Shown: in pieces, positions 21,563-64,000 of the stretch
How the letters are laid out: each line of letters begins with the position of its first letter
Position numbering within the stretch: the first letter of the stretch is position 1
Assembly: GCA_000091205.1 (NCBI GenBank)
Contig: AP006495.2
Strand: one strand, 5' to 3'
DNA: 64,000 nt
DNA from: Cyanidioschyzon merolae
Taxonomy: Eukaryota
The notes under the pieces: generated by a model
Database searches by the model: none
The model's input: only the letters and a program-made list of their open reading frames with translations
What the model was told of the DNA's origin: nothing
Program-made: the position numbers and the translations under genes

Positions 21563-23415
21563 TCGCCGCGCTCTCCTGGACACCATCCAGCAGAGCGCTT
21601 CGCCGAGCGGCCTCGCGGTACGTACGGGAATCGACCTGTTGTCCAGCGTCATTGAGGGCGTCGCGTTTTTGTCTACCGTTTTGCTGGCGCGTCTGTACGC
21701 GGGTGTCGATGCTGAACCTATCCCTAATTTTGACGAGGGCAGCGTACACCGCAGCGGCTTTTGATAGGAGAGGTGGTGATAGCGAAATCGGGACGCATGG
21801 GTAACACGCTCTCTCATGTGTGACGCATGCTCATTCCGGAGCGAGACTGGTGGATGAAAGGCAGTTCCAATGCATAGACGTGTCGCACATTCTCTCTTGC
21901 CTGTCGTGTGTGAGCGTTGTGGACCGGAGAGCGCGCGGCGACGGGTGCCTCACATGAACATACATACACTGGAGCGCATCGACGCATACATGCAGGTACA
22001 CAAGCAAGCATCCTAGATGGAGTTGGCATTTGTTGACAGTATCCGGCTCCGAACTAACGAATGCTAGACTGGTTGTATGGTCGCGCGGGGTGCACCAATC
22101 CGAAAGCACCATTGTGAGGTTGTGTGGCGCTGCAAGAGCCTTCGCGTAATGCGCGCAGCAGACCGGCACTCGCAACATGGTGAACATCTGCCCCGTGCCT
22201 AGAGGTGCATCTTGCAGCGGCTCTTCGCGAAAAAAGAATGCGTGTATTCGGTTGTCTAGGTACAAGGGATCCATACGGTCTTGAACCCTTTGCTTTAGGA
22301 TCTCTTGCTACGCATACGCTCGATCACTTGAAGCAATCGACATCGGGGTGTTTCACATGGAGCTCATGAAATGGATCGAGGTTACGCAGTATGCCATCAA
22401 AGAGACTCAATCGGTTCGGTCAGCTGAAATTTTTCAGCCGCTCGCGAGCATTGACGAGTCTGATGCAGAACATAGATACGAGGCGCACGCTTCGCCATGG
22501 AAAGAAAACAACTCTGCTCGCAGACTGTTTGATCTCTGTACATTAGAAGTAAACTGGAGCTTCCCTGTGCACCTGGGGAGATCGGCTCCGTGCGTCGTCT
22601 GCACAGTAATCGACAAATATCCAGAGCATTGGATAACATGTTATCGACTCTCGAACGACACAATCTAGAGACTCGCTTTCGTATAGATATGTAGATACGC
22701 ACTATGGCAGTGAAACGATCAAGTCCCGCGATAACAGCGTAAATGAATACCCGCCTGCAGACGCCTCCCAGCCTTTTTTGACCAGCGGCTTCTTATCGGT
22801 TCGCGTTTCTCCTTGGACATTTCGATCCTGGGAGTTTGCCCAAGAAAATAGATCGCGTCAGCTCTTCGGATCTCATCTGCAACATCATACATCATCTCAT
22901 ATAGCTGGCGATGTTGAAGTCTGTATTCACGAGATCCGCGCGTTTATTGCCTCTGGTTGAACGCACCATTGCAAGGATTCCTCTAATTCTTGCGCTCTGT
23001 GCTACGCCAGTATCATCATTGTCCCACTGAGCAAACGCCTTCTCTCGCGTATCGCCCTTCATATCGCTCGCCTCCTTCCTCTTCGTCACTCGCTCTTCTT
23101 CGCTCGCTGGTCGGCGAGAACTGGATTTTGCATTGTTTGTTTCTGTCAGGGAGCGACGTCTGCCTCCAAGATCCCTGTCTTTCATCTTCATACCTCCCCC
23201 TTGGATTTTCTATTTCTTCACAAGAACGCACTCGGAACACATTTGCTATGCACTGCGATAAAGCATTTGGTTACACGCATCTGCCTATGGAACACAATTC
23301 AGGTGAAACACTTGAACACACCCAGGTGCACTGCCGGCACGCAACTACGCTGAAAGCGCACGTGGAGCTGCAGTCGACTTTCACTGGACCGAAGCTCCCT
23401 GGCGAGCCAACAAGC

Positions 23416-31649: not shown

Positions 31650-32090
31650 TTCCCTCTTGCTCCGTATTCAACAGCCTAATGATGTTGATAGCAGTGTTAG
31701 AGATCTGATTGCGCTGTCTCGGGCTATTACCGACGCAGTTCCTGTAGAAAGAGAAGTTGCGATAAACGCTTCGGTAGCCATTTGCCATCTTCTTTGAAGA
31801 CAGCCTTGATGCGCCCATCGCAGCGGTGACACTAGGCTGTAGTCATATGTTGCCGTCTGTTCAACATGGTCCATCCTACGAAGGCATCCCTGTGGCGAGT
31901 GAATGCTCGCTTCCTCGCTCGGTACATGCCCTCTACGTATACAGAAGGTTAACCTCAATGCCTTCTTCCGTTTCCAATCCCGGGGCCGTACACTGCGCCC
32001 TGGGGCTCCTCACGGACGAACGCTTCGGCGATTAGCTTGTCCCCTGTACGAGCAAGCGCATGGTGTTCCATTCGATACGGGATTTGTGAA
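31650..32090. repeat. Dispersed repeat family, copy A (about 440 bp)
   Basis: About 80% nucleotide identity over about 440 bp to 37010..37455 in the same orientation. An example shared stretch is atgatgtt.a.agcag.gttagagatc.ga.tgcgctg.ctcgggct...cgacgcagttc ... tacgagcaagcgcatg.tgttccattcgat. The overlapping ORFs on both strands look alike only because of this DNA identity. Confidence 0.8.
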
Positions 32091-37009: not shown

Positions 37010-37455
37010 GGCCTGTCCATCCCGCTCCGTTTCCAAAAGTCGAATGATGTTCACAGCAGCGTTAGAGATCCGACTGCGCTGCCTCGGGCTGTTGTCGACG
37101 CAGTTCACGCAGAAGCCAGATTTGCGATCAACGCTTCGATAGCCATTGGTCATCTTCTGTGTGTACACAGCCTTGATGCATCCTTCGCAGCGGTGATAGT
37201 TGGCTCTAGTCAGATGTTCCTATAAATGCAGCATCGTCCATCTTAAGAAAGGCCTCCCTGTGGCGTGCGAACGCTCGCCTTCTCGCTCGGTACATGCCCT
37301 CTTCGCGTACAGAAGGCTAACCTGCCTGCATTCCTACGTGTTTGCGCCCGGCGCTGCATCCCACTGTAAGGGGCTTCTGCAGGGCGTATCCCTTTGACGA
37401 GTACGCTGTCCGCTGCACGAGCAAGCGCATGCTGTTCCATTCGATGCTGCATGAT
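37010..37455. repeat. Dispersed repeat family, copy B (about 440 bp)
   Basis: Partner of 31650..32090. See that entry. Confidence 0.8.
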
Positions 37456-41974: not shown

Positions 41975-42380
41975 TGCAGGTGCGTGTTATCAAATGCTTT
42001 TTCGGCGGTTTACGGCAATGCGTTCCAAGTGCGTTCGTTTTGGAGACATAGATAATCCAAGGGAAAGGTATGGACAGAAAATTCGGGGATCCTGGGTAAT
42101 GTCATCGCCAGTTGCGGGAGAGAAACAAAAAAATCCTGTTCTCCCTAAACACCGAGTGAAGAAGAGCAAGTGGCGAAGAGCTAGAAGAGGCAGAACGGGG
42201 ATCGAAGGATGCGGAAAGGATTTTTCGCCCTCTTTTGGCAGACGGCTACACCAGGCACCCAGTATCCCCGAATTTTCTGTCCATACCTTTCCCTCGGGTT
42301 TCTCTAGTTCTTCGCAGGAACGCACTTCGAATGCGTCTGCCGTAAACCGCGAAAAAGCATTTCATAACGCGCACCTCGGA
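41975..42380. repeat. Foldback / long inverted-repeat element: two 125 bp arms (about 85-90% complementary) around a 150 bp spacer
   Basis: Left arm 41975-42100: ggtgcgtgttatcaaatgctttttcggcggtttacggcaatgcgttccaagtgcgttcg...gggaaaggtatggacagaaaattcggggatcctgggt. Reverse complement of right arm 42251-42375: ggtgcgcgttatgaaatgctttttcgcggtttacggcagacgcattcgaagtgcgttcc...gggaaaggtatggacagaaaattcggggatactgggt. Only about 25 bp inside the arms diverges. Confidence 0.85.
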
Positions 42381-43915: not shown

Positions 43916-44320
43916 GACTGCCCTGCGACATGGACTGACCCTATGCGGCCTGGCGGATGCTGAAACCCTCTTTTGCTGATTTTATCCCATGAGGCTGCCT
44001 TTCAGAGACGAAGCGGGAACCTGGCAATAGGCTACGAGGCCTGCATGCTCTGACCCTGTCATCGACAGGCCCCGTGCTCACGAGCAATGTCGGTATCGTG
44101 GTATGCCGCCAGGGCCGTTTCACTTCATTGCAACCGCAACTCCAAGCGAGGATCATCGCTCGATACCTACAAGCCGAAGTAAAACAAGGCCAATCTTTTT
44201 ACGATGCAAGTGAAGCGTCTCCGGTGGATCCGCGACGCATTCGCTCGCGTAGCAGTATCCTTATACCGGAAGGCAGCCTTGCTCTTCCGACTCCAGTGTA
44301 AAATCGAGATCTCGGAACAT

Positions 44321-45841
44321 CTAGGGTGCGCGGATGTGCACCAGGCCAGCTCGTATGAGCATGCGAACTTGGTCTAAAGTGCACCCACTCGCCTCCATGA
44401 GTTCACGAGTTCTTCGCCGATTCGACAGTGCCCCACCTGACGAAGCGTCAGCGACCATCTGCTTTGCAAAGGCGACTTGTGCCGCGCTCAGCGACACCGG
44501 CCTATAATCGCGATCGAGGACAAGTTCAGACGGGGCGCCGTACGCGCATTCGCTCCATTCGGGAATGCTGGCAGCGATTTCATCATCCGTGGGCTCTGTC
44601 GAGGGAAACGGGTCGCGCGCTAGGAAGAACTCAAAGTGCGTGATGCGCTCGGGATCGAGAAGTTCCACCAATCTCCACCGCTCCGCGTCGCTGAGCCCCT
44701 GAACAAGCTGACGTACCTCGGGATCGTTCCCCAGCAAGTGGTCTAGATCAAAGTTTCGAGCATTCGACCAGCCCAGGAATCGCAGACCGCTTTTCTCCGC
44801 CAACGCCAAGACGGACGGTACATCGAAGTCGTGTTCCAATGGATGGACATACATATCCGCGAATGTGGCATCGGAGCGGTTGTCGTGTGCCCATCGCTCA
44901 TTCTCTCGTTTCTTTAAGCGATTCTCGTCCGGAAGCGCCCTAAAGAGTGCCCGACCGAGGGCGACTCCCTTTTTATAATCCCCTTTGCTGCCGGTAGCCT
45001 CTTGGATCAGGGCAATCGCTGCCTGCATCCGACGAATTTCCCACCGACCTGCCTCGGCGTAGACGAAAACATGCAGGATGCCACCGGGGGCTAGTTTTCC
45101 CGCCAGCATCTGCAGCGCTCTGGCTGGGTCTGGTGTATGATGAATCACGCCGACACAATTGATCATGTCAAATCGACCGCTTATTTCTCCGTCCTCGAGA
45201 TCGAAAATGGACTTGCAGTACAGGCTGGTGCGATGCCGGGCATCGGGGACCGACAGCTCGAGGCGCTCACGTGCAGTCGCCAGGGCTGTCGGCGACAGGT
45301 CAAAAGCAACCACTTCTGCCTGCGGGTTCAAGTGAACCAGATACTCCGTGCCGCAGCCGGTTCCACAGCCGGCGTCCAGAATACGAACTTTCGTTGTCGC
45401 TGGAACGCGACCCTTGGCACAAAAAGCGTACGCCGTGGGGTAGTGCCAGCGCCAGTTATAGCCTGGTGGAGCCCCGCTCGTAGGCGGATCCGGCGGAAAC
45501 GGGTATGCGTTGTACAGCTTCTGGACAGCCTCTGTAGCGGAATCTAGCTTACGACCCGACTCGCGCTGCTCGAGCGAGGCTACAAGTGTCCAGACTCGAC
45601 TTGGGCGTTGGTGTACTCTGAAAGAAAGGCCTCGTCCGCCGTGAAGCAGCCTACGTAGTCTCGGCTGTGCGAGCGTTTTACCTGCAACAAAACTAGAAAC
45701 GCTCAAGAACGCAGTTGCCTGAGTCTTTTTCGTACCGGTATCCATCCAGGTTGAAACTCTCGCCTGTTGCGGCACAAAACAGCAGGCGTGGTTATCGGAA
45801 CAGAAGGATTTCACGACTAGAGGGTAAATGGATGCTGCCAT
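44321..45841 (-). CDS. Class I SAM-dependent methyltransferase (Methyltransf_12/25-like, bacterial/cyanobacterial type) with an N-terminal presequence-like extension
   Basis: Motif I: VRILDAGCGTGCGTEYL. Post-I acidic: EVVAFDLSPTAL. Motif II/III: FDMINCVGVIHHTPDP...LAPGGILHV. The N-terminal 90 aa are S/T/R-rich. There is an ATG at 45841, but the first 15 codons overlap, in another frame, the tail of the Fanzor-like remnant. An alternative start is MDTGTKK about 32 codons downstream. Confidence 0.75.
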   Translation of the reverse strand: MAASIYPLVVKSFCSDNHACCFVPQQARVSTWMDTGTKKTQATAFLSVSSFVAGKTLAQPRLRRLLHGGRGLSFRVHQRPSRVWTLVASLEQRESGRKLDSATEAVQKLYNAYPFPPDPPTSGAPPGYNWRWHYPTAYAFCAKGRVPATTKVRILDAGCGTGCGTEYLVHLNPQAEVVAFDLSPTALATARERLELSVPDARHRTSLYCKSIFDLEDGEISGRFDMINCVGVIHHTPDPARALQMLAGKLAPGGILHVFVYAEAGRWEIRRMQAAIALIQEATGSKGDYKKGVALGRALFRALPDENRLKKRENERWAHDNRSDATFADMYVHPLEHDFDVPSVLALAEKSGLRFLGWSNARNFDLDHLLGNDPEVRQLVQGLSDAERWRLVELLDPERITHFEFFLARDPFPSTEPTDDEIAASIPEWSECAYGAPSELVLDRDYRPVSLSAAQVAFAKQMVADASSGGALSNRRRTRELMEASGCTLDQVRMLIRAGLVHIRAP

Positions 45842-47552
45842 GCTGACGCCTCACGGTCTTTTTGGGCCGGCCACCTGCTATCGACTTCATCTTCTTCCCG
45901 TAAAATTCCACACTGAGAGGCTGCTCCACAAAGTTGGCTCTCGTCAGCTCTTTGGGTCTCTTCTCCATTACGACACATCTCCGTATAGTGATGGCGGCAT
46001 GAAAGTCTCGGGTCACAGCCTCCATGCGTTTCTTGCCGCCGCTGGTTGTACTCACCAGTGCAGGGTGTCCTCGAACTCATGCCCTCTGTGGCATTTTCTG
46101 TTCCGCCAGCGCTCCGTACTTTTCGATATCCGCAGGGCTCCTGTGAAACTTTTCCATCTCGAACCTCTGAAGCGTACACCTCAGTTCGTGGTGCACATAC
46201 GATGTTCGGAACTCTTATGTATGTATTGTGAAAAAACGGTGTGCATACTCTTTGTACGCTCTTGTCGACGGAGCTGGTGCACATCCTTTTTTATGCGTCA
46301 AGCGCCCTGTTCCGAGTGCTATCACGAGTCGTTGACTCTTGTCCTCCTTGAGGGCGCTCAACTTATTGAACAAGTTGGCGAATGCACGCTGCTTCCCACA
46401 GTCCAAGTCGATACGCTGACGAGCGCACCGGCGCTTGGTGTACTCTTTCCACATCTCCTCGGAATGAGCAACGCGAATTTTCACGGACTCCTGAAAAGCT
46501 TGAAAGCTCGCACCTCGGCTCGTCACATTGCGGAACTCCTTCTTCCTGACATCGTACTCCAGACTGATCTCCCTCGTGATGCCGTAAAGGGCTCTGGAGC
46601 CAATTGTCACCAAGTGCGACTTGATGTTGCGTATGGGAACGACATTGAAGCGCTTCTCTAGTAGGGAAGCGTTCCGTTTCTCCGACTCTTCATTTGCTTC
46701 CACATCCTGCTCCATTGCGGCCTTGCGATCGAGTTGCCGGTTCAGGACCACAAAATAGCACAGCATCAGAGGATAACTTTTCTTAATCTCTGATACCTTT
46801 TCTGCTGGGTTGACCAGCCCCAAGACCGCCCGATGCTCTTAAATAGCCACACGGATCGCAGAAGCTTCATTCGTGCTTCTGCGTGATGTCTTCTTGTCGA
46901 CGAACTCGATCCCCTGTTCGTGCTGGGGATCGTTCATGATGCCATTGATGATGGCCCATGTTCCTTTGCGAGAGAGGCCTGGGTAGAGTGGAAGAATGGA
47001 GCGTATCATGAAACGTTTGAGGTTCACGATCATGTGGTTCTTCAGGCCCATGAGGTACTTGATTGCCCCTCATCCGTAAACGCACAAGTTACCCTTGTAT
47101 CGAGTACTGTTGAAGCGGAATTCGGGGTGATATTCGTGGCGGGCGTGCACTCGCTCATTTCTCCGCGAGGTTTCCCACGTGCTAACCTTCAGGTGGCTGA
47201 TGAAGCTCTAGTCGTAAAATTCTTCCGGAACCTCGACTGTTTTGATGGCCGTCACGTCGCGATACATCTCCCTCGCCAAATGCATTAGTCCTGACGACGC
47301 CTATGTAATACTCTTGGAGTACGAATCGACATGGTTTCTGATAGCGTCTCGCAGCTTTTGCTTGTACGGATTTTTGATATATTTAAGAAGACAGGCTTTC
47401 ACCACAGTCTCGTTGTACTGTGGTCTTTCTTGCAGCCATTGACGTCGGACCTCCTGCCTTCGCTTCTTCGTCTTCTCCAGTCCCTCTCTGCTTGGGACTG
47501 TTTTTCGTTTTTTTCCGCTAGCCGGCGACACGAATCCTCCAGGATCCTCCAC
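45795..47552 (-). mobile_element. Decayed Fanzor/TnpB-like (OrfB_IS605-family RuvC) nuclease gene: NLS-bearing N-terminus, C-terminal RuvC-III motif, several frameshifts and stops (pseudogene)
   Basis: A chain of ORFs in three minus-strand frames: 47301..47552 (MEDPGGFVSPASGKKRKTVPSREGLEKTKKRRQEV..., basic NLS-like), 46839..47051, 46215..46823, 45817..46284 and 45792..46055. The last reads GGKKRMEAVTRDFHAAITIRR, which is the D-x-N-A-A-x-N-I RuvC-III hallmark of TnpB/Fanzor. It is preceded by a degenerate Cys-pair region (EPCGYRKV...TPCTGEY). The C-terminal 200 nt are about 75% identical at DNA level to 59265..59465. An in-frame TGA lies 5 codons upstream of the 46839 ORF. Confidence 0.5.
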
Positions 47553-48663
47553 TTGCTTCTAGATAAGTATCGTTTTTTATTTTTGAAAACGAACCCACTT
47601 CGAACGCTTCTCCTATAAACCACGAAAAAGCACTCGAATACACTAATGTGAGGGTTGGCACCCTACCGAACTGAAAGACTATACTTTGCTACAACTCGAA
47701 CGCTAGTACATCTTGTACAGCAGAACACCACGCTAATGATCAGGATCGCGTTTTCCTCCATAGGCGGCATTTGCGTCATCTCTCATGCCTGCCAGATATC
47801 GACGTGCATATATCGACGACGCTATAGAAAGAAGGAAAAGAAAAGAACCACGTACTAGCAACTCAATTAGAAATTCTTTCTTTCTGTGCGGTATACATTA
47901 GAAAGGGGAGCAAGCTTTCCGAACACTCGAACGTTTATCTTCTAGGCGGAAGGTTTCTCGAGCCTGACGAGTCTGCCGCGCTCGTGTTTCATGCTCCTCC
48001 TGGTGGCGGGTGCTGTACTGAGCTCCGAGCAGCTGTCCGTAACGCAGGTTATTCTGGGACTTGGAGCCGGTAAGCGGCATCTGGATATCGCCCTAGTCGC
48101 GGTGACCTCTTTGTATATCGCTTCGCGCTGTCGCAGGCCGTACGCTTTTCTACACAGTTTGCTGCCTCCGAGAATGATAGTGCATCCCGAATCCGTATTG
48201 AATGAAGCACGACTCGAGCCTTGACTCTCGGTGGTGTGGCAACGCCTTCTGTCTCTATGCTGCATCCGCACCTGCGGTATGGGTGCCATTGCGGTTGCTC
48301 ACGGCAGGCTCGTCGGTCGATACAACGTTTGAAACGACCACTATATCCGAGAAGAAGTATGACTCATGGAACTTGGTAGCAGGGTGTGTTACAAGCGATG
48401 CTTCATGGCGCTAATGTCAAGCGTACACTCGGCAAAAAACACTGGCCTGTCAACGTTCTATCAATGAAAAATAAAAATCATTCGGTTGTTCGACCTGCGC
48501 AATTCTGCCCGTCTACTCGCGCCCAGCACCAAGCAGCAGCGCACACCACACGCACCTGCTTCGAGCGAGACTTTTACCAGGCCAAAACACTGGTCCGTTC
48601 TCTATGGCGAGTTTATTGGAGCGTGAAGAATTAGAGTGATAGAGACGTGGTACCCGAGCTCAG

Positions 48664-49110
48664 ATGGCGCTCAGTGGCCGTGCCGAGGAAGGTCGCACCT
48701 TGATGGCAGTGGACTTGGCGCTTCAGCCAGCGCCGGCGTTGCCAAAGGATGGCGGCGCTGAGGTTACTGCAGCGATCGACCTATGCGCAGAGCAACTGCA
48801 GCTCATGATTCAGTGTTTACTCGAGCGTGAAGCGGACGAGTTTTGTCAAGAGTCGTTGCTGCTCTTCGCCGCTTGCAAAGAACGAAGGGACAACGCACTG
48901 CGAACCAGGATCCTGGGGTACGACAGGCGGCACGGTGTACAGGTATCAACGCTTGAGCGAGAGTCTCAGGAGGTGGCACAAGCGCTCGATCGGGAGAAAC
49001 AAAGACAAGGAGAGAGGGAAACGCTCGGCGTAGTCCACCTCACGTCGCGTCTGCAGGACTTGAGGGCGCGCATCAAGGCGCTCACCAACGGCACCGAATC
49101 AACGGACTGA
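48664..49110 (+). CDS. Hypothetical small coiled-coil protein (148 aa)
   Basis: Real ATG. Non-repetitive. Heptad-rich C-terminal half (QEVAQALDREKQRQGERETLGVVHLTSRLQDLRARIKALTNG). Size and composition resemble small coiled-coil complex subunits of the BLOC-1 or Mediator type. No family assigned. Confidence 0.4.
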   Translation: MALSGRAEEGRTLMAVDLALQPAPALPKDGGAEVTAAIDLCAEQLQLMIQCLLEREADEFCQESLLLFAACKERRDNALRTRILGYDRRHGVQVSTLERESQEVAQALDREKQRQGERETLGVVHLTSRLQDLRARIKALTNGTESTD

Positions 49111-49681
49111 ACCGCCACAATATGCTGGGTTCGAGCCCGCCTCACCTGCGCCATGACGAGTAAAGCACCTGAGGCGGTCTTGGACGCGCACTGCGGAACA
49201 GCGGACTGCGCATCCTGTTCACTTGGATCAGTGGCCTCAGTCGGCTGCTCCTTCACCCTGCACGGTGTCCGTCATACACCCACGCAAACAGGGAGGTGGC
49301 GCGAATGCTGCCCGCTCGGCCAAGGCGGACTCGCACGTATCGACCCGTGTCGTTCGCGCCGTGCCGCTCTTAGTACGGTAAAAATCCCACAACGGTATCC
49401 ACGCCAGCACTCTGAAGCGCCCTGGTTGACATCGGGCATCAGACATTCGCGGTCGAGCGTCTCTGTCTTGGATTCCCGAGGTTTCATGCTGGCGCGGTAA
49501 CTCCAGCGTGGCGCTCTGACGGTATCCGCTGGTGACGACACATGCTCGCTCGAGCCGCTTCGCATGGATACGATCGCAACGAACTGCGGACTGGAGGTGT
49601 GTCCGCGAATTTCAACCAACGAAATGCAGCACCCGGACACATTCCAGTAGTCTTTGACTACTTCGTCTAGAGTTAAACCCT

Positions 49682-50446
49682 TTAAACATCTGAAGCGTAG
49701 CACTGTCGACAGTCGACCGGGGGCTCTGTATAATCAATGCCAGCATGCTGCATCCGAACGGCCATATCGAAAAGATAATCCAAGCACTCGGTCACTGTCT
49801 TGGCCTCGACATCGTCACGACCCCAAGCGTAGAGACCGTGACGTCGAACCAGAACTGCCGGTGATTTCGGATAGCGCTGCATGGCTTTGGCCATATCCCC
49901 TGCCAGCTCCTCTTCGTGCGCCGTATTGTCGATCACGGGAATAACCAGCGTGTCATGATACCCGTGCAAAGGGATCCCTTTTATCATTTCCAAATGGGTA
50001 ATTCTGAACTCCGCGTCTGCTTGCGTACGGGGCAGCAGCGTTACCATAACAGCGGCTGGAGAGTGCGTGTGAATGCACGCACCAGCATCCCGCAGTCGAA
50101 AAGCGTTGTAAAATAGAGGGCAACACTGCGAGACCCGTAGCGACGGCGTACTCACGGGACGCTGGAGGATCTCCCCCGTCTCCAGGTCGAGCACAAAGAT
50201 GTCTTGACGTCGAATTCGCTCCTTTTGTACTCCACTCGGCGCCATGTAGACGCAGCGACCCTGTCGCACGGAGATGCCCCCGCCAGTGCCAGTCACCCAG
50301 CCGAGCTGGTAAAACTGCCTACAGAGCCCAGTTATGACGGAAACCGGGTCCTCGTGACCTTCTTCATACATTCGGTCAAGAGGGCGCTCCGTGTCAACGT
50401 GACGATCGTCGCAGCAGCAGCAGCCCGCGCCGTTCGCCAGCTCCAT
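49682..50446 (-). CDS. Methylthioribulose-1-phosphate dehydratase (MtnB/APIP; class II aldolase/adducin fold), methionine salvage
   Basis: Real ATG. ITGLCRQFYQLGWVTGTGGGISVR, CVYMAPSGVQKERIRRQDIFVLD, GACIHTHSPAAVMVT, ITHLEMIKG, AVLVRRHGLYAWGRD(-)VEAKTVTECLDYLFDMAV. These blocks, in this order, match the MtnB family. Confidence 0.85.
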   Translation of the reverse strand: MELANGAGCCCCDDRHVDTERPLDRMYEEGHEDPVSVITGLCRQFYQLGWVTGTGGGISVRQGRCVYMAPSGVQKERIRRQDIFVLDLETGEILQRPVSTPSLRVSQCCPLFYNAFRLRDAGACIHTHSPAAVMVTLLPRTQADAEFRITHLEMIKGIPLHGYHDTLVIPVIDNTAHEEELAGDMAKAMQRYPKSPAVLVRRHGLYAWGRDDVEAKTVTECLDYLFDMAVRMQHAGIDYTEPPVDCRQCYASDV

Positions 50447-50493
50447 AGTGCCTCAACCAGCGCCCTAGGCGGCACAGGGCAAAGTCGTGGTCG

Positions 50494-53400
50494 TTAGCGC
50501 GCACGCATCGCCGGCTGATCGACGGCACCCGCCGCTGGCAATTCGTCGATGCGCCCGTCGCCCTCGACACCGAAGCACACCGCGAGGAGCTTTCGGCGAT
50601 CTACGAATTGGAATCCGCGTTGTAAGTAGAGGATTTGTTTGTGAGAGGCTTCATAGTATTGCGAGAGTGCTTGAAATGCTCGCAGCTCTGAAACGGTGAT
50701 ACCGTTCGGAACACATACTAGAATGAGGTCGTGGTCGCGGAGTTGTGGGACGTTGGAGTTGGACGCCTGCGCTCCGCGTGACTCGCGTGGAAAGCCTATG
50801 ATTTCAGCGATCGCAGCGAGCGCGCTTCCTTTTCGTCGTGGGTGAAAACTCAGATTCGTGTTGGCACCCTCGAGTGAGGCAAATAATAAGGCCGGCAGGG
50901 TCAAGACGCCCATGCTTTGCGTCGCGTTTGCCGTGCCGCTCTGCACAGCCTCAACCAGTGTGCTATTGAGCCAGTTTGTCCAAACGCTTGCAACAGCTTC
51001 ATAATCCGGTCCATTGTGGGCTGAAATGCTGCTCAATTCAAAGAGGCGATCTACAAGCAGGTTTGCGGTGTCTCGTATCCAGGCATCCCCGGCTCGCGTC
51101 GCGGCAGCTTCAATAGCCCCGGACAAGCGGGTACGCTCGGCCTCGGATGCGTCCGCCTTCCAGTCCAGTACCGAGCACGTGTATGCAAGGAACGGTAGCA
51201 CCACTCGGTGGAGATTCTGGTTTGAAATGACATCAAGGAGCTCGTCCATGATGTGATGCAATGAAAAGCCGGCAGAGGCCCAGTTCCGAGCCAGCTGGAG
51301 CAGCGACTGCAGTCTTTGTTCATCGGTGCATGCCGCCTCGACGCTGGGGTCTGCATGCTGCTTCGTGTCCGCATCCTGGAGCATTGTCGCCGCGCACCAT
51401 ATCGCAGTGGCAGCGTAGATGAATAGGCCACTCTGGCGAACGCGCTGGCGAGGTTCCAGAGCATCCCAGACGCTTTCGATCAGCGTACGCATCTGCTCAA
51501 CCTGATCTCCAAGACTTGCGGTTTTTTCCACTGATGACGCATTTGCAATTTCCGTATCTGGATGAGACATCGCACTGGGTACCGCTTGTGAATTTTCTAC
51601 GCCAACGCCAGCGGTGGAAACGCGCCCCAGACGTGTGGCGCCCAGTTTTCGGCGTGGCGGACGTGGCGGCCCTGCTATCGATGAACAACGGACAGTCTCT
51701 GCAGGCCGTGTGTGCACCGCCTTGTTGGCTAAGGTCTGCTGCGGCGTCGCCAAAAAAGAAAGCTGCTTCTTCACAAAGGAAAGAAACGCTGCCACATCGT
51801 GCTGCCGCTCGAGCAACGCTTCGGTGAATTCACCAGTCGAGAGAAGCGCCCTTGTCCCGGAAACACCCCCCAGCGGCGCAATGAACCAGTCGAGATCAGA
51901 GCCAGCATCGGATTCAGAATATAGAAACCGACGAGATACCTTCTCCAATACGTGTCCCTGCGACGCCAATAGACATCCGAACCAGTCATGGATCGCTGGA
52001 TCCATGCCGTTCGCGTGTCGAACCGCTGACGCAACGTCCAACAGCCGATCCATAAACACTACACACATGCGCACGGGGGTAGCACTCAAATCCGACTCGA
52101 GGCGTTGAAGGTCATCGATCCGTAATCCTTCGTAATTCGCGAGTTCGAGGTCCGCCATTTCCGATTCTGCACATTCTAAAGATTCTACGAAGCGTTTCGC
52201 GATAGCATCTGCGACTGGAGCACGCCCGAGTACAAACGCTCCCGTGCACGAGCACTTCAACGCTGCGCATAGAGCAGCGACTTCGCGTGACACCCGTAGA
52301 GCGGCATCGGCGAGAGAATCCGTCAGACTTTGCTCAAAAAGTATCCTTGGATGGGTCCAGGGCTTAACGTCGTCCCCAAAGCCGATACATTGATACCAAG
52401 CACACGATCCTGGAGATAACACCCCCAAGTTCTGACTCGGAAAAGCCGAATACATCGCCAAAAGAGGTGCGTACAGTATCCAGCTCTGCACGTCAAGATC
52501 CCGTCGGTGACGCTGACAAGGAATCTCCCCTGGTGAACCGCGACACGCCGCACAGGTTGCGGTGTAGCGACGAAGCACCTCTCGCTCGATACGTGCCTTA
52601 AGCGCTGCGTAAGGAAAAAGTTCACCAAGGGATTCTCGCGAAGTTTCACCACGCCCGACATCGCGAGACAATTCAGAGGAATGGTGCATCTCGGAGGCGC
52701 TCCAGGACGTTGCAGACTGACGTACTCGCCAGGCTTGGGCGGCCTCGGCGTTCGTCCAAGTCGTAAAGAGCAACACCCGGAGCTGCAGTGCGTCTGCGAC
52801 GCTCGGGTCAGTGTCTCGTTCAGTGACGATACTGAGGGGCTCTATGACAGCGAGAACACGCTCGACAATAGCTGAGATTAGACCGTCCTCGAGCAAACTC
52901 GGCACCTCACACCCGATCAAAAATATGATGGGAATAACTGCTCCTACCTGGCTGGTCCAGAGTTCGCGCACTGCCAGCTCTCGCACGGGCGTTTCCCAGT
53001 CGTAGATCGCCGCTATGTCAACAGGCAGTTCTAAGAGCTCATGTAGCGGTAGAACACTCGACAGCGCCAGCCAACTCGATCTGTCTCCAAATATGACACT
53101 GCCCCTTTGCATGTATTGTCTACAGAAACTCCGAGCCAACTTTTTCAGTACCTCGTGTACTGTTCGACCGCCGCTGAAACGGCGCATTTCTGTGCCGGGT
53201 ACGGAAAGACGCAAAAAAAACACCAACCGAGGATCGAACCAGTGAAGGTTGTCCTCTACCGTGCAAAGGTTTCTGTACGCATCACCTGGAGAGATCGACT
53301 CGCAGCTCGTCGTCGGTAGACGTAGGTTCGGCTCCAGCGACCGCAGGCAGGTTTCGGGAATCCACCAGCGGGAATGAGCGGGTGGTGCATCCCATGCGCC

Positions 53401-53740: not shown

Positions 53741-54061
53741 TCAGTAGTCGAGCGATGGTGATGGCTGCGTTTCAGTGATAGCTTCTGAATTCTGGCTGCA
53801 GTCGACGCATATCATGCACAGACGCAGGTCGCGATCTGGGCTGCGCTCGCCGTTTCCCTGTTCCTTTTTGTACATAGACTCTGTGCACTCTCCGCAGCAA
53901 TGACACTTGACTCTGGTCGGGTGTTCCCATATGTCCACTACACCTCTTATTCCTCTGAGGGCCGCTCTGTGACGCGTGAACGCTTGCCTAATCGCTCGGT
54001 ACCTGTCCGTGTCGGGTACAGAAGTCTCCCCTTGGTGCCCGCCTCCGTTTCCGTGCCCCAT
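53741..54061 (-). CDS. Candidate small zinc-ribbon protein (106 aa) with two CxxC-type clusters
   Basis: HPTRVKCHCCGECTESMY ... LCMICVDCSQN gives a two Cys-pair arrangement about 30 aa apart. The N-terminus is Gly/His-rich. Low confidence: GC-rich DNA generates many ORFs of this size. Confidence 0.25.
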   Translation of the reverse strand: MGHGNGGGHQGETSVPDTDRYRAIRQAFTRHRAALRGIRGVVDIWEHPTRVKCHCCGECTESMYKKEQGNGERSPDRDLRLCMICVDCSQNSEAITETQPSPSLDY

Positions 54062-55971
54062 GCCCTGCCCTACTGCAGTCAGGAGCCTCCTCTGAGAGAT
54101 TATCGTCTCGAGTACGCTGACCGCTGCGCTCGTAAGCGTACGTTGTTCCTTTCGATAGTGGATTTATAGAATGCGTTGCTGTCCATGATGAACAGGTACC
54201 GCACGGAAAATCCAGGTTATAGTACAAGCCGCGAATCTTCGATTCGTCTGCACGCGCTCCAAACGAATCCGAAACACAGTCCCCGCTGAAATCGATCGCA
54301 GTGGTGACTCATGACCGAGTACAAGACTCTACGCCATGCAAACACAGAGGTCGCGAGCCTCCGGCATCGAATTCCATGAGGAGTATCAAGCTGCGCTCGA
54401 ATACCGTCTCGTCGACGGCCACAGAGAGAGGAGGACATGCTCTTCGAACGAAATCTAATATTGGCATGGAGGAACATAGTGCATTCTGGGCATGATTTTG
54501 TGAAGATGTCGTCACGGGTCACGATCGCGTTGCATTTTCCCTGTCAACCCAGCAGGGAGCATTGCTGCGCCTATGAGTTGCCTCGGATCGGAAAAGTGGA
54601 AGACTTTAGAGATGGCTGATTTGAGCATGCTACACCTAAAGAAAGACAGAGCGTGGACGCTCGTACACAAGAATCGATTGATCATATTGGTTATTTAATA
54701 GACGCTTTTTCGATGGCGTCACAGATCATCCTGATGACGGTCATGCAACGAATTCCAGCGTCAAAGATTCCAAACCGCCACTAGGAAATGGTGCCCGAGA
54801 ACCCCAAATCTACGTGCCATACGATCGCACCTCCTCCTGCATGTCGAATGTCGAGGATCTACATCTAAAAAACACGCGGAAAGAAAATCGAAAAGTAGGA
54901 ATAGAGCAATCAGCCAAGTGTTTCCGTTCAGCCTAATACCGGTGTAGGGAACCGACGAGTCGGCACCGTTCAGCGCGCGAAAGTTTTCCTGGCTGCGGCT
55001 CGGTTCCCTGCGAGCCCTCTCAAGTCCACGACACTAAGAAACCTTCTTGCCATCATTTCCAAAAGCGACGTTGAATGCAGAATGTCTCGCGGGCTCGGGT
55101 AGTTCGCTTGGCGGTGCGTTGTGGTTCCAGGCAGGGCGAGCGCTGCAGCACCGCTCGAGCGCCCTCCACCAGTCCATGGACGATGCCGTGGGAAGCGCGC
55201 TCTGCGCTCAGGCCGCGTCCCCGTCGCCGAGTTCCTCCAGCGTATTGGCCTGCTCACCCAGCCATGGACCCGCTTGTACAGCCGTTCAGCGTCCGGATGG
55301 ACAAGGAGACTCACGGCAGTGGGCCGCATATAATGGACCGTACGAGCCAGCATCCGCAGAGGCAATGTGTACCCATTCTGTCGCTGTGCGGCGCCTGCGT
55401 GTTCGCTGGATCCATCAAGCCCTTACTCCATAGATCATCAATGCTCTAGGGCTCTTGGAACATAACGGCATCTGCGGAAGCGTCCAGCTTCATGTCCTGT
55501 TTACCAGCCGCACTCGCGTACGCACGAGAAGCGTATTCCATTCTGCTATCTGGCAGCATTGGAAAAAACGCAGTGCGGCCATAAAGTGTTTGTGCGTCGC
55601 ATAGCCCCCAGACGCGCCGACATTGGATATCACGCACCGACTCCGTTCCGTTAAGGTGCAATCGAATACTGAAGAGGTGACGTTTGCGCCTCCTGCCGAA
55701 AACCTGCCGAGTACAAGCAAACGGAATCGTTTGGTATGCAGAAGCCATCGGAGGCTCCGCTGAAGATTCAGGCGCCTGGCCAGCGCTCGCTCATCACCGT
55801 CATGTCTTCGTATGCCTCTGGACGAGCGGATACGTCGCGAGATTCCTCGACGACGTTGCAACGGTGAAAAAAATGCGATCAAGCGACGCTTCAGCTGGCC
55901 GAGACGCGGTGCCTGCTGCATTAATGATCCTGCTCGCACTCGTGTACTGCGCTGTGCCGTACTCTGCCTGA

Positions 55972-57735: not shown

Positions 57736-58745
57736 TAGCGCGTAGTTCCGGGCGATCCCGCCATGGTACAACCGGGGGCGTAAACCCGCTCGCACTGCGA
57801 CGACTCACGCCGGTGTTCTCTCCAAGGTAAAGGCCCTGGGAGCGCCCTCGTCCCGAAGACCAACTGGACCCGCACCGCTGAACGCACAAGTCGCCGCCTG
57901 AAGAAGGTACCTTGAGGGGCTGCTTTCGAATATCGAGACTGCTTTTGGAATGCGGTGCACAGCAGCTCTATCCAAAGCGGCAACTTTCCACAGTGCCAGC
58001 AGTTCAAGTGTATGTACAGCGCCGTCGACTAAAACAGGCACGGAACGGCGAACGCCCACAGTTCAAATACCGCTTCGGAAATGCAGCTTGGAATCAATTT
58101 TTCGTTGACGAAACGATTACGTTGATCTTGGATCCCAGACTGAACGATGAATTTTGGTATCCTGGTATGCGTTCATCGAGCTATACCCTACCTTCAAGTT
58201 CCATTACTTATACGTTGTTCCGGATGTACCGACTGTTTTGTACGTTCCACTGTGTACCAAGCCCGCCGTGAGCACCCCCAACAGCGATTATACTGCTGGT
58301 GCATATGTATGACGGAGACAGAGCGGCTTTGCCATTCCACTGCGGGCGTCGGATGGAGGAATGCTATGCCTGACACGGAATCAGGGCTAATGGTCATTCT
58401 GGGAACCTGAAATATGCGCAGAGAAACTTACTGCCTGCGGCAGCGCCAAGCGATATGCTAGGAGATAACTGCAACATGGGCGATGCCCAGACGCAGCCTA
58501 CCCGCTCCTAGTCCCAGAATAACCCGCGTTGCGGACGAGTCGCTCAGGTCTCATTACAACATCCGCCACTGGAGGGGACGCGAAGCACGGGCCTGGTAGA
58601 CAAGTTCGGCTCGCGGGACCTTCCGCCTGGGAGATAAGCTTTCGAGAATACGGAAAATTTTTCCCTTTCAAAGGTTACCATGAAGGTGGCACCAGAATGC
58701 TATCGAGTTGCTCGTTAATGGATATTTTCTGTTCTTTTTACACAT

Positions 58746-59019
58746 TTGCAGCTAGTACGTCACGTGTTTCTGTTGTTACCACCACGGATACTTCGTGGAA
58801 CCCTTGAAGACTTTTCCCTGGCGTCAGGCGACATCCTTCTTTTTCACAACATGGCATTTCACCCTTCGAGTTCGAACTTTTACCGATTCTATATGGGTAG
58901 ACCTGCATTTCATTCCGCCATATTCGCCGTACTTCAACCGCATCGAAGAATTCTTTTCTATGTTGAAACGTAATGATCGCTCAGATGGAAGAATCGCTGA
59001 AGATTTCAGCGCACGGTGA
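58746..59019 (+). mobile_element. Tc1/mariner-superfamily DDE transposase remnant: C-terminal catalytic half with a frameshift (pseudogene)
   Basis: Frame 1 reads ILLFHNMAFHPSSSNF, compare the Tc1 VVFQQDNAPCHTAK block containing the second catalytic D. Frame 2 reads VDLHFIPPYSPYFNRIEEFFSMLKRN, compare the Tc1 [22 protein letters not shown] block containing the catalytic E. The two pieces are in different frames and no intact N-terminal DNA-binding half is present. Confidence 0.6.
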
Positions 59020-59264
59020 CACACCGGACCATATGTCGTCTCTCTTCCGCGGGTCCTTCTCCCTCTGGGAAGGTCCCTACCTCAGGGCATTAGCACGTGC
59101 GTTCATTTAAAGAAATAAAAAATCCAAGCGATGAGCTGCGCTGTACACTGCAGAGGGTCGAGATGCAGAAGGGCCGGCAGAGCGCTCAGTGGATTGAAAA
59201 GTACGCAACGCTGACAGAGCAGAAACTGGCGCAAAGGGCATGAGTTTTAGCAATCCTTGCAATA

Positions 59265-59465
59265 ATGCGTTCTAGTAGAGGCAAGAAGCGCATGGAGTTC
59301 GTGAACCGAACCTTGAACGCCGCCATCAATATCAGACGATTTGCGATGCTGGGGAGAGAAAGCCCAGGAGTTGACGCGAGCCAACGTTGTGGAGCAGCCT
59401 CTCAGGTTCAAAGTATACAAGGAAAATCTATAACCAGTAACATGCGGCCGGTCAAAAAAGGCTAG
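59265..59465 (+). pseudogene. Fanzor/TnpB-like C-terminal fragment (RuvC-III region); second copy of the element at 45795..47552
   Basis: SSRGKKRMEFVNRTLNAAINIRRFAMLGRE carries the NAAINI motif, with catalytic D replaced by L. About 75% nucleotide identity to the minus-strand segment about 45840-46075, including ...agccaac[g/t]ttgtggagcagcctctcag.... Lies 250 bp downstream of the Tc1-like remnant on the same strand. Confidence 0.5.
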
Positions 59466-59865
59466 GAGGCGTCTGTGAGTGGTTTCCAGGGTACCCTCTC
59501 GAGCCGATGCCCTCTGCGATATGGCAACGCCGACCTCTGTCCGTGCCATGACCGCACCGGCACTACAGGCGCTATTCCGGACATTCAGGCCATGCACTAC
59601 GCCCGAGGTAGAACGTCTGAAGCGGCCAGTATATCCGGGAAGGGTTAGAAGTTATGGAACTTGGGAGTAGAGCGCGCAATGATGGATGCTTCACTGTGCC
59701 CTGATATCGAGCGCCCAGTCGCAGAACGCTGGTCTAGGTCCAGGTTTCATGGAATTCAAGAATGCAACATTTCACGCCGACTCTGTCGGAAACCGCGCCC
59801 GCGCAATACCTCTTCGATAGCTTGTGGAGCTCGCTTCTGTATTGAAGCTGGGACACGCACTCGAA

Positions 59866-60561
59866 ATGGACGTGGCAAATATGAAAGTTGCCGAGCTACG
59901 CTGCGAGCTCGAGAGAAGAGGCCTCGATACCACGGGGAAAAAGCAGGAGTTACAGGAGAGACTTCAGAAAGCGCTTGAGCAGGAGGCGCACGGAGAAACT
60001 TCCGCAGCAGAAGCAGTGCCTTCGAAAGGCGACAAAGAGGCCGAGGCGGAGTCTGCTGAGCATGGCACCAGACCAGAACGTGGAGATCAGCAAAGTGCTT
60101 CGAACCAGGAGCAGGGCGCTCTGGAGGCGGGCGCAGAGGACACAGGAACCGGGAACCTCGACACTACGAGTGCGCCAAGAGCATCAGCGCCCGCACCGGA
60201 AAACTCCTCTTCACCTGAGAAGGAAACAAGAAAACTTACGGACGAAGAACTTGAGCAGTTTCTCACGCCCGCCGAGCGAGAGGAAGTTGCGAAAACCATG
60301 GCGCGAGCTGCTCGGTTTGGGGTGCCCTATGGGGGTCTGCCGGCGGAGCTCCGGCGCGCCGCTCTCAACCGGTACCGCAAACGAAGGCGTTTCGAGAAAG
60401 CACTAGAGAAACACGGAGGCCTCGTCCCGGTTGATGAGGCGGAAGAGGAACGGCGGCGGAAACGCATGGAACGTTTCGGCCTGTCCAAGCCAGTACTTGA
60501 ACTCGAAGCGGAGGAACGCGAGCGGAAGCGTTATGAGAACAAGCCGGAAAAGACCAGATAG
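59866..60561 (+). CDS. SARNP: SAP-domain ribonucleoprotein, SARNP/CIP29/Tho1-like (mRNA export, TREX-associated)
   Basis: N-terminal SAP motif MKVAELRCELERRGLDTTGKKQELQERLQKAL, compare human SARNP LKLAELKQECLARGLETKGIKQDLIHRLQAYL. C-terminal repeated R-x-E/A-RFG motifs (MARAARFGVPYGG, RRKRMERFGLS), as in SARNP RAERFNV / RAARFGI / RAQRFGL / RKERFGI. The track ORF starts at 59824 with GTG. The first ATG is at about 59866 (MDVANMKVAEL). Confidence 0.75.
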   Translation: MDVANMKVAELRCELERRGLDTTGKKQELQERLQKALEQEAHGETSAAEAVPSKGDKEAEAESAEHGTRPERGDQQSASNQEQGALEAGAEDTGTGNLDTTSAPRASAPAPENSSSPEKETRKLTDEELEQFLTPAEREEVAKTMARAARFGVPYGGLPAELRRAALNRYRKRRRFEKALEKHGGLVPVDEAEEERRRKRMERFGLSKPVLELEAEERERKRYENKPEKTR

Positions 60562-61295: not shown

Positions 61296-64000
61296 AACGG
61301 AACACGAACGTGCGACACAACGCGAACTCTTCCGCACTACACTACCTGCCGAGTGCTGGATGCGATCAGCCCTGCGATCGCTTGCGCGATATTGTACACT
61401 GCGCGGGGACGAATGCGTCAGCGCGCACGCAGATAGACACGTGCCGTTGATGCTGCACGATGCGCCACGTGGCGCGCTGTGCGATGCGATGACGCATCGA
61501 GTGCTCACCCATGCAGCGGTTGTAGCGGCGGCGCTGTGCCGTCTGCGCATGCGTCCGCTGATTCGGTGCTGGCCGGTGCTGTGCGCGCGTATCGCACTGG
61601 GAACGGCGCGCCGCTGGGGCTGCGGAGCGATACGCTCCTCGGTGCAGCGGGGAGAGATGGTCGCTCGCGTGGCGTCCATGTCGCTGTGTATGTGTCTGGA
61701 TGTTATCTGATTAGGGTGCAGCCTGTACAAACGTTTGATCCGTGTCCGTATGCCTTGCAGACGATCGTCTCGACCGTAGATAATGCAGCGTGAGCGAATA
61801 GTCGGCGGGAGACAAAGGCCTGTGCGACACTGGCGTTTCGCTTGTGAACAGAAATAGACGAAGCGCGATGCATGGCGGTACCGAACTGGTGTCGAATGGA
61901 CGCTCGGTTTCGCACAGAGCGATCCAGCATGGAACCATGTATGCTCGGTGTTTGGGTGTATGGAGAGTATGCGTGCTTCCGGAGCAACGATACGGAACCT
62001 TGGGATGCATGCTCGTCGCTGAACGATAGCACTCTTGGAGGTGCCGATCTTTTCTGGATACCTGACTTTTGATGTTGTCCGGATGCTCTCCAGAGACGTG
62101 TGCGTTGAACCTGTCCGATGTACTTGCCAGACCGGCTCGGCACGGGCCATGCACTCGCACTGACAGCAGAGTGTAGGGCAAAACGACTATAGAATCGGAC
62201 TCGAAGTGTTCCGTCTCCAAGGTTTCCGCCCCCCGATGTTTGGAGCGGTACTTCTAGGCGAAGCTCATCATGCATCACTTGCGGTAGCCCAAAAGGGCAA
62301 CGCGAAGCTGTCTCGCATGCTTGTGAGGCAGCAGCAAAGCCTCCAATGCCAAAGAAAAAGCATCCCCAGGAGAATCTGGTACCCAGGTGGGCGCTGAATC
62401 GATTCGGTCCAAGTCGTCTTAAGTGAGGCTCGCTTCGAATGGCGCATCTTGGAAGCGACCGGTACAACACGCCAATGGCTTGCGTGGTAAACCAAGAATC
62501 ACATTGGCAAATCCGATGGGATCTGGTTAGGCGTGCAGCGACGAATGCTGGAAGGGACATTCGGACGTGATCTTGCTAATATTACTTGTTTCTCTCACAG
62601 ACGTTCAACAAAAGAAACGGATCCTGCAGATTCGACAGACATAGCAGATACACTCTACACAAGCGCTGCTAACATGCGAATCAATGGGGCTTACCTCTAG
62701 CGTGCAGGCATTCTACGTTCAGCACTTTGGTGAACCAGTACTCTCTAGGGCCGTGCGCTAAACGTCGAGCACCCGAACAGAGCCTCTGCAACGCCGTCAA
62801 CGCGACAGTCGTCCGAGCAGTCCATTCCGCTCCATCCATGCGTGCCGCACCAAATACGACCAGACAAGCCACAGAATATGAATGCTCCGCCCAGGTGCGA
62901 CGGACGCTCCTGAGGCGACGCCCCCGGGGAAAGCAAAAAGCACGCCGAACAACACAGACCGGTGACTTCCGACTGAGACGCGAACGCTGCGTGCAGCAAG
63001 CACGGGTTCCCGCCGCACTCGGCACGACTGTATCCGGGCGAGACGCCACACCGCCTCCACAAGGGCATTCAAAGAGCGAGCAACATGCCGCTGGGCGTCT
63101 ACAGAAGACCAGCCAGCATGCCGACTGCATCAGCCACTGCGGCGATTCGGTCGAGCGGTCGCTTGCAACTCGCCAAACGCGCGAAATCCTTCTAGAGCCG
63201 GTCCTTCGTCGGTGCACGCTTCGTCGCTTCTCCTTCACACATGCCGCTGCCCTGCCCCGAGACAACGACGACGCCCATCACTGAAAATCAGCGGAGGAGT
63301 GCGCAGCTTGTCTGGCGTTCCCGCCCCTCATTCCGAGAACGTTGCTAGGCGTTCCAGACGCGGGGCTGCCAGCGGTCCGCGTCCCTCAGAGAGCCTGCGA
63401 TCCAACGTTCGTGGGGCACTGCAGCTGACGCTCGGCACCCCAGGGACAATACGAGTTCATTCTTCCAGGGCGTGGTAGCATCGGGAGTCGGGCGCGACGG
63501 ATGCCACCAGGCCTATCGACGAGCGGAGTGACGGCCCCAGGACCCGTGTGGACGCGCTGAGAGTGCCGTATCGAGCAGCGCGGGATGCGCTTCACGCTTC
63601 GCTCAGGGAGTACGCGAGACTCTGGATGACTCACGCGGACAGTCTATTGATCGAGTCCACGAGACAGCGCAATGGAGTCGCCGGCCGTTGCGGCCGTACG
63701 GGGCCAGTGAGCGTGCCCTCGCCAACATGTTCCATGACCACGAAGGGCAACTGGCCGATATATCGTTTCGCTCGATGGTGGTGATGGCGGTGGGCGTAGC
63801 GGCACCCGCTGGCACTGGGCGTGCCGGGGCACCCAAGCGCTGCACGCCTCTGCTCCCTCGACGAGCGTTTCCAACGAGTGCAGGACTCGATGCCATGCGA
63901 TTCCCGTGATTGGCTTTCCGACGACATCCACGCGTCACGGGCTCGGGTGCTCGCTGATCCCCAGGTAGCGAAGAAGCACATGAAGCAGAGACGGATGCAC

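Follow-up and report, generated by a model that had tools for sequence, protein, structure and literature searches.

A 64,000-nucleotide (nt) stretch of the Cyanidioschyzon merolae 10D genome (NCBI GenBank assembly GCA_000091205.1, contig AP006495.2; hereafter the window) carries two degenerate gene copies, copy 1 and copy 2, which are very probably dead copies of CMe-1A, a C. merolae repeat whose sole gene encodes Fanzor1, the eukaryotic relative of the bacterial RNA-guided RuvC endonuclease TnpB. CMe-1A is old and unclassified, ~3.2 kb long and devoid of terminal inverted repeats (TIRs), and neither copy is able to make a nuclease or a guide RNA, both being fixed genomic fossils. The analysis establishes which family the copies belong to, how they are built, how far they have decayed and that they are fixed in natural populations. 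An earlier note on this DNA, drawn from the letters alone, recognised real Fanzor1 relics by eye, with several details that need correction; both the family and its host, as well as its identity as Fanzor1, had already been published in 2013, and the window copies are typical fossils that add little new biology.

Identity of the repeat family

CMe-1A is the single Fanzor1 family given for C. merolae by Bao & Jurka (2013, Mobile DNA 4:12; PMC3627910), who reported ~150 copies of a ~3 kb element at ~80% identity to their consensus, without TIRs or a transposase and of unknown transposon class, the 5' 635 bp of which constitute a separate repeat, TE-N2_CMe. The CMe-1A consensus of 3,169 bp, taken from Additional file 2 of that paper, was aligned to the window, in which five long open reading frames (ORFs) are identical to the C. 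merolae 10D proteins BAM81043, BAM81044, BAM81045, BAM81057 and BAM81059. Copy 1 agrees with the published family in organism, in DNA identity to the consensus (79-81%, and thus ~80% over most of the consensus length), in a TE-N2_CMe-like 5' module (consensus nt 84-636, with a stand-alone 1-636 unit elsewhere in the window at 58,103..58,737), in a single Fanzor1 ORF with a protein 69% identical, and in having no TIRs, no inverted repeat linking its two ends. It differs in lacking consensus nt 1-83, 1950-2399 and 3092-3169 and in carrying a different 45-nt 3' tail, while copy 2 differs in being a 345-bp 3' fragment only, set inside a DDE_3 mosaic absent from the paper's description. The 3' terminus of the consensus (...TTTTGAAAGGCG) is found in neither copy 1 nor copy 2, nor in copy 3, a further 3' fragment in the window, the matches ending at consensus nt 3083-3091.

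The two motif strings on which the earlier note had based its recognition, RDFHAAITIRR (45,978..46,010, - strand) and RTLNAAINIRR (59,307..59,339, + strand), are both present. The copies do lie on opposite strands, ~11.7 kb apart, as had been described; their identity, given previously as ~75% over ~200 nt, comes to 69% over 344 nt (45,845..46,187 aligned with 59,473..59,133).

The encoded protein

The translation of copy 1 matches 37 metagenome proteins (JGI and ENA). The best match, P0001 (562 amino acids, aa), is 59% identical over 94% of the query (E = 4e-192), and longer relatives such as P0002 (752 aa) carry an additional internal segment with the motif GADPGNTNI. An exhaustive profile search yielded 1,569 relatives, and an alignment of 68 diverse full-length members shows no variation at D484 or E656 and at least 90% conservation at D725 (P0002 numbering), these being the RuvC D-E-D residues within the motifs GxDPGxxNI, VDEFRT and NRDxNAAxNI. 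Searched against the PDB, the 68-member profile matches Fanzor1 of Parasitella (9cf0, E = 7.7e-21), Spizellomyces (8gkh, 2.1e-13) and Guillardia (9cer, 7.6e-9), and nothing else. The Fanzor1 fold (REC/WED and a split RuvC into which a nuclease lobe is inserted) was tested on the intact relative P0002 rather than on the pseudogene in the window. Its AlphaFold model, built with the deeper alignment, reaches a predicted local distance difference test score (pLDDT) of 82 and a predicted template-modelling score (pTM) of 0.81, and its PDB ranks 1-7 are Fanzor1 chains (SpuFz, PpFz, GtFz; E = 1.5e-16 to 6e-14; TM-score 0.72-0.73 normalised to SpuFz), with Cas12 proteins next. Both tests worked only after the exhaustive search had supplied diverse relatives; a shallow alignment of 24 close relatives gave no PDB profile match and an AlphaFold model of pLDDT 31. 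Because the family profile matches solved Fanzor1 and the predicted fold of the intact relative does so too, the Fanzor reading is correct, and the claim that both copies are decayed Fanzor/TnpB-like RuvC nuclease genes stands. A profile search, proposed earlier as a check, finds no Pfam or NCBIfam match on the conceptual translations of either copy, and with the family profile it finds solved Fanzor1.

The solved Fanzor1 proteins come from Spizellomyces punctatus (SpuFz1; 8GKH, 9CEU-9CEZ), Parasitella parasitica (PpFz1; 9CF0-9CF3) and Guillardia theta (GtFz1; 9CER-9CET). The profile matches to them span the RuvC-I DPG, DEFRT and NRD-NAA-NI motifs, the D-E-D residues are conserved in the CMe-1 family, and they are the best matches to the predicted fold of P0002; in contrast, sequence identity is only 13-16%, the zinc-finger cysteines are not conserved in the CMe-1 clade, the CMe-1A consensus ORF stops only ~60 nt before the element end, and the window copies are dead. 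With bacterial TnpB (IS200/IS605, IS607) the family shares the RuvC D-E-D core, a gene that ends near the right end and the absence of TIRs, but CMe-1A has no TnpA partner, its matches to the Pfam TNB/OrfB models are sub-threshold (a Pfam hit above the gathering threshold, expected of prokaryotic TnpB, is found on none of the window translations), and CMe-1 resides in a eukaryotic nuclear host and has a long helical N-terminal half.

Anatomy and decay of copy 1

Copy 1 consists of two blocks of consensus sequence on either side of an in-frame deletion (Table 1), and its boundaries come out alike when it is compared with 71 related loci, obtained by scanning metagenomes with the single protein P0002. 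Local alignment carries its 5' end to consensus nt 84 (window 48,383), and at its 3' end it probably extends to ~45,790.

Table 1. Positions of CMe-1A-derived sequences and associated features in the window
Feature	Position	Strand	Basis or remark
Copy 1, internally deleted, decayed CMe-1A	45835..48383	-	blastn and local alignment; consensus nt 84-1949 and 2400-3091
Copy 1, 5' part (consensus nt 91-1949)	48,376..46,533	-	blastn, 80.7% over 1,863 nt
Copy 1, 3' part (consensus nt 2400-3091)	46,526..45,835	-	blastn, 78.6% over 692 nt
Copy 1, 5' module resembling TE-N2_CMe (consensus nt 84 to ~636)	47830..48383	-	alignment; inner boundary ~47,830 extrapolated
Copy 1, Fanzor1 pseudogene, one frame, 586 codons, six in-frame stops	45792..47552	-	
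Basic N-terminal stretch GKKRKTVPSREGLEKTKKRRQEVRRQ	47439..47516	-	conserved in family consensus (alignment to CMe-1)
In-frame 450-bp deletion junction (consensus nt 1950-2399, residues 349-496)	46526..46533	-	locus L077 identical
RuvC-II region EFRTSYVHHELRC	46176..46214	-	glutamate (EFRTS) retained; preceding codon is a stop
RuvC-III motif RDFHAAITIRR	45978..46010	-	aspartate retained
Alternative 3' tail, type B (CATTTACCCTCTAGTCGTGAAA...TTCC)	45790..45834	-	replaces last 78 consensus nt
S-adenosylmethionine (SAM)-dependent methyltransferase BAM81057	44321..45841	-	annotated ATG (45,839..45,841) and first ~16 codons inside element 3' end
TE-N2_CMe-like unit, complete (consensus nt 1-636), directly 5' of DDE_3 remnant	58103..58737	+	blastn, 78.1% over 640 nt
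Tc1/mariner/IS630-type DDE_3 transposase, C-terminal remnant	58746..59019	+	Pfam DDE_3 (PF13358), E = 1.3e-6, 28.7 bits against a cut-off of 28.6
Spacer between DDE_3 remnant and copy 2	59,020..59,130		
Copy 2, CMe-1A 3' fragment, 345 bp (consensus nt 2737-3083)	59,131..59,475	+	73.9% identity
Inverted TE-N2-like fragment (consensus nt 65-255), directly after copy 2	59498..59691	-	blastn
Copy 3, CMe-1A 3' fragment (consensus nt 2840-3085)	22756..22997	-	67% identity; not listed in the earlier note
Older Fanzor1-like relic	26477..27663	+	29-36% protein identity to family members (range for the three older relics)
Older Fanzor1-like relic	13328..13918	-	as above
Older Fanzor1-like relic	63434..63956	+	as above

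The pseudogene is 69.4% identical over 578 residues to the 734-aa CMe-1 consensus protein, and its two insertions or deletions relative to the consensus, of 12 nt and 450 nt, are both in frame. Its stops (TAG 47,303; TAG 47,210; TGA 47,072; TAA 46,841; TAA 46,217; TGA 46,079) fall at consensus K88, K119, Y165, Q242, D602 and K648, respectively. An uninterrupted ORF is thus present in neither copy, given six stops in copy 1 and a stop with a frameshift in copy 2; the earlier note had ascribed stops and frameshifts to both, which holds for the stops and for the frameshift of copy 2, whereas copy 1 has no frameshift. The basic N-terminus described there is present, and a role of GKKRKTVPSREGLEKTKKRRQEVRRQ in nuclear localisation may be supposed.

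The RuvC D-E-D triad of copy 1 is incomplete. The 450-bp deletion takes out the RuvC-I motif GADPGNTNI including the first catalytic aspartate, while the glutamate and the final aspartate (RDF) are present; the catalytic D-to-L change previously attributed to copy 1 is not there, since the RuvC-III aspartate is kept, the RuvC-I aspartate is lost by deletion and a D-to-T change belongs to copy 2. Directly after RuvC-II lies a degenerate zinc-finger region in which the second cysteine has become F (EMEKFHR against the consensus EMEKCQR). Copy 1 is a member of a deletion subfamily that had lost residues 349-496, six stops then having been gained, with the last 78 consensus nt absent.

Four metagenome contigs (L073-L076) are syntenic with the window, 99.3-99.5% identical to it across the relic, and carry the same lesions, the sole difference being the stop at 46,217, which reads CAA in L074. 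The copy 1 relic is fixed in natural populations.

The TGA that copies 1 and 2 have in common at consensus K648 was considered as an intron or as a mark of shared descent, both of which are disfavoured; recurrent C-to-T change at CpG explains it better, as the subfamily codon is CGA or AGA and TGA occurs in only some copies. A 20-nt inverted match (90%) was also observed between the 3' tail of copy 1 (45803..45822) and its own ORF (47206..47225), including a mutated TAG codon, with a rough chance expectation of ~0.01.

The neighbouring methyltransferase gene

The element abuts a host gene, as previously remarked, its homology running through the annotated ATG of BAM81057. This ATG aligns to consensus nt 3085-3087. 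On the element coding strand the triplet is CAC in the consensus and CAT in the window, so the start codon arose by mutation inside the element. Its position in element-homologous sequence, together with the recurrence of the 506-aa model (annotated start) in near-identical strains, would fit exaptation, in which the 3' end of copy 1 supplies the start codon, an N-terminal extension, a leader or a promoter of BAM81057 and the relic has been kept for a function. However, another model (P0092, 474 aa) begins at Met33; the strains compared are 99-100% identical, which makes conservation uninformative, and the differences from the syntenic contigs fall in relic, intergenic DNA and adjacent genes alike, with no evident deficit in the relic. 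Exaptation is regarded as unlikely.

Copy 2 and the DDE_3 mosaic

Copy 2 bears a TGA stop and a 1-nt insertion frameshift near 59,345, and of its RuvC triad the first two residues are absent and the third has changed from D to T (RTLNAAINIRR, 59,307..59,339, + strand), the L in this motif replacing F (consensus NRDFNAAINIRR). It sits in a recurrent mosaic of a TE-N2_CMe unit, a DDE_3 remnant, a Fanzor 3' fragment and an inverted TE-N2 fragment. The DDE_3 remnant, reported in the earlier note as a Tc1/mariner DDE remnant, is real by its Pfam match. At ~70% identity, the series formed by DDE_3 remnant, spacer and Fanzor 3' fragment is present again in L010, L056, L058, L057/L069 and L013, and because it recurs at five other paralogous loci the pairing is a repeated mosaic and not chance.

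That a Tc1/mariner-like family carried Fanzor1 as cargo, with 58,746..59,019 as its transposase, was the history envisaged earlier, and the fixed order of DDE_3 remnant, ~110-300 bp spacer and Fanzor 3' fragment at these paralogous loci is consistent with it, as is the occurrence of Fanzor1 genes within Mariner elements of other organisms (PGv-1, PUl-1 and PUl-4; Bao & Jurka 2013, PMC3627910), to which the window compares in having a DDE_3 remnant ~110 bp 5' of a co-oriented Fanzor1 fragment, a pairing that recurs. The composite differs from those elements in that no TIRs bracket it (the only inverted pair in 57,900..59,900 is internal, 20 nt long and 80% matched), and a full Fanzor ORF does not stand alongside the transposase, the Fanzor part next to a DDE remnant always being just the last ~345 nt (~115 codons). 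Among the 71 related loci fetched, no DDE_3 gene lies inside a long Fanzor copy; DDE_3 remnants occur in only three of them, each beside a truncated Fanzor 3' fragment, and upstream of the long CMe-1A copies lies a TE-N2-like 5' module or a 5' untranslated region and no transposase. Copy 1 has no DDE sequence, a TE-N2_CMe-like unit lies directly 5' of the DDE remnant in the window, the neighbouring TE-N2 pieces differ in orientation among loci, and the published family lacks both TIRs and transposase (PMC3627910). Given the lack of TIRs and of a transposase inside the long copies fetched, a Fanzor-carrying Tc1 element is not supported and must be judged distinctly improbable; copy 2 is taken to be a truncated CMe-1A fragment within a mosaic. 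The copy ends could be defined against the consensus, and the TIRs sought with them were not found.

A second DDE_3 remnant was seen at 10472..10690 (+; Pfam E = 0.04; 40% protein identity to the remnant at 58.8 kb), directly followed by a TE-N2-like fragment at 10708..10878 (+; consensus nt 6-178, 80%).

Related loci and the deletion form

The related loci amount to further copies from the genomes of C. merolae populations, since the same metagenomes hold contigs 99.3-99.5% identical to window 44,000..50,844, relic included. An intact full-length ORF is kept, among the loci fetched, only in L001 and L002. At the site of the copy 1 deletion, 440-830 bp are present in every locus except L077, where positions 422..2110 encode P0001 as an intact 562-aa ORF with the same RuvC-I deletion junction as copy 1 (EF followed at the junction by S/R-x-VTSRG) and with the RuvC-II glutamate replaced by methionine (IDMFRTS). 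Copy 1 and L077 are 72% identical in DNA, with a ratio of non-synonymous to synonymous substitution rates (dN/dS) of 0.445 at a dS of 0.56, and other, full-length pairs give 0.38-0.44; from these ratios (0.38-0.445), much of the divergence of the family arose under protein-level constraint, as Bao & Jurka suspected.

The deletion form could on this basis be a nuclease-dead Fanzor1 derivative kept by selection, in the manner of bacterial TnpB-derived RNA-guided regulators, with copy 1 as a dead member: the two sequences share one junction despite a 28% DNA difference, L077 retains an intact ORF in which the RuvC-II glutamate has been replaced as well, the dN/dS between them points to constraint, and both copy 1 indels relative to the consensus are in frame. 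Set against this, the form has just two known members (copy 1 and L077), of which copy 1 is itself dead, its dN/dS equals that of full-length pairs, and the pattern could equally be mimicked if full-length copies had taken part in gene conversion or if L077 had arisen recently, making selection for such a derivative very unlikely; copy 1 is read simply as a decayed, internally deleted CMe-1A.

A 75-bp (25-residue) tandem repeat was observed in the Fanzor ORF just before RuvC-I (L001 11146..11450 and equivalents), and the AlphaFold model is disordered there (residues 385-469). This repeat probably accounts for the 440-830 bp range of segment length among copies.

3' ends and a candidate guide RNA

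The 3' ends of copies 1, 2 and 3 differ from those of intact-type copies. The type B tail (~45 nt) is common to copy 1, copy 3 and locus L072 and is weaker in copy 2, copy 3 ending at the same consensus position as the other two; a tail hidden Markov model matches the three copies only to model position 41-48 of 125, and intact-type copies and the consensus run ~80 nt beyond the point where they cease to match. The suggestion that guide scaffolds would have resided in the 3' flanks consequently fails for the window, where all three 3' ends stop matching ~80 nt before the consensus end, and no guide-RNA scaffold survives there. The 3' tails of the window copies fold no better than shuffled sequences (z = +0.6 and +1.4), and searches of the window for tRNAs and Rfam families gave no match. 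At 32,352, 13 nt match the terminal-hairpin motif, probably by chance: there is no flanking similarity, and 10 of 100 shuffles reach such a match.

In the CMe-1A consensus the ORF stop occupies nt 3108-3110, ~60 nt before the element end. In intact copies a predicted structured 3' end of ~125 nt overlaps the end of the reading frame and finishes in a terminal hairpin. In the predicted fold of these last ~125 nt, which are conserved among intact-type copies, a closing stem formed by AGUAGUGG and CCACUACU encloses internal hairpins, the other part being the terminal hairpin (10-15 bp); the stretch folds better than shuffles (z = -2.1 to -5.8). A ribosum-scored consensus of the tail pairs 88% of cells, against 40-62% in slid controls, while RNAalifold predicted almost no structure and a hand-drawn structure did no better than shuffles. 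Inspection of the 3' flanks of intact copies, another check raised in the earlier note, thus turned up better-than-shuffled folding over ~125 nt, with covariation that lacks significant support, and the 3' RNA structure of intact copies is not claimed as proven. By analogy with solved Fanzor1, the 3' end of an intact element would give rise to an RNA, and this RNA would guide the protein to cut matching DNA; the likeness to bacterial TnpB with its omega (right-end) RNA extends to a predicted structured 3'-terminal stretch that overlaps the ORF end and closes in a terminal hairpin. The ~125-nt structured stretch that ends intact CMe-1A may represent a red-algal Fanzor1 guide RNA, so far undescribed.

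In the 3' flanks of 22 CMe-1A-type copies (L003-L069) the 8 nt past the consensus end are biased towards TTTGTTGT, with TT near-invariant. Judged from these flanks, the TTTGTTGT bias would reflect either an element a few bases longer than the consensus or a target-sequence preference.

Weighing the assignment

Several observations weigh against the assignment of the copies to a Fanzor1 element with the workings outlined above. Among the relatives, PF07282 (Cas12f1-like TNB, formerly OrfB_Zn_ribbon) is matched only below threshold (E = 0.0023 to 0.23), and since the relic itself has no direct Pfam or NCBIfam match, Fanzor1 membership of the window copies rests on a chain from window to family to solved structures. 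A guide RNA from the 3' end and RNA-guided cleavage in the CMe-1 family would be carried over from characterised relatives. The 3' tail shows no excess of positions with compensatory changes, though its covariation score is higher than that of every shuffle, and because repeat copies decay neutrally this test has little power.

These points leave the identification of copies 1 and 2 as dead CMe-1A very probable, and the contrary reading, in which the NAAxNI strings arose by chance or the region derives from some unrelated protein family without homologous elements, has the empty Pfam and NCBIfam searches of the conceptual translations in its favour and has a negligible probability, being refuted by the match of copy 1 to P0001, by 2.5 kb of DNA that is ~80% identical to the published Fanzor1 element, and by profile and fold matches to solved Fanzor1 structures.

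Further relics and repeats in the window

The three older Fanzor1-like relics (Table 1) carry stops, the one at 26-27 kb is without the middle of the gene, and none of them is detected with the CMe-1A consensus DNA. All three may be either very old CMe-1A copies or a second lineage; for the relic at 26.5-27.7 kb, considered as a second Fanzor1 family, CMe-1A-like relatives and more distant ones give equal scores. Fragments matching consensus nt 826-969 (leader and first codons) were seen at 23135..23276, 41984..42132 and 42221..42362, the latter two forming an inverted pair that is 84% complementary.

Other repeats include a dispersed sequence of ~370-430 bp, unrelated to CMe-1A, in three copies that are 66-76% identical (31651..32076, 37016..37445 and 53791..54156), and an 82-bp tandem duplication (3426..3507/3508..3589, 96% identical) just upstream of ORF 3741..5594.

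Implications

The C. merolae genome measures ~16.5 Mb. At least six Fanzor1-derived relics, with TE-N2 and DDE_3 debris, are packed into these 64 kb, a density higher than ~150 copies in ~16.5 Mb suggests. The annotated start of BAM81057 inside transposon-derived sequence merits checking. The shared in-frame deletion derivative with a conserved ORF is the only lead with some novelty, and if it were kept by selection, the deletion form would be a eukaryotic counterpart of bacterial TnpB-derived RNA-guided regulators, a proposition that the collected loci permit to be tested. The same loci, among them one intact ORF of 752 aa and ~50 copies that have 3' tails, constitute a data set for the 3'-end RNA and the target-site preference of red-algal Fanzor1.

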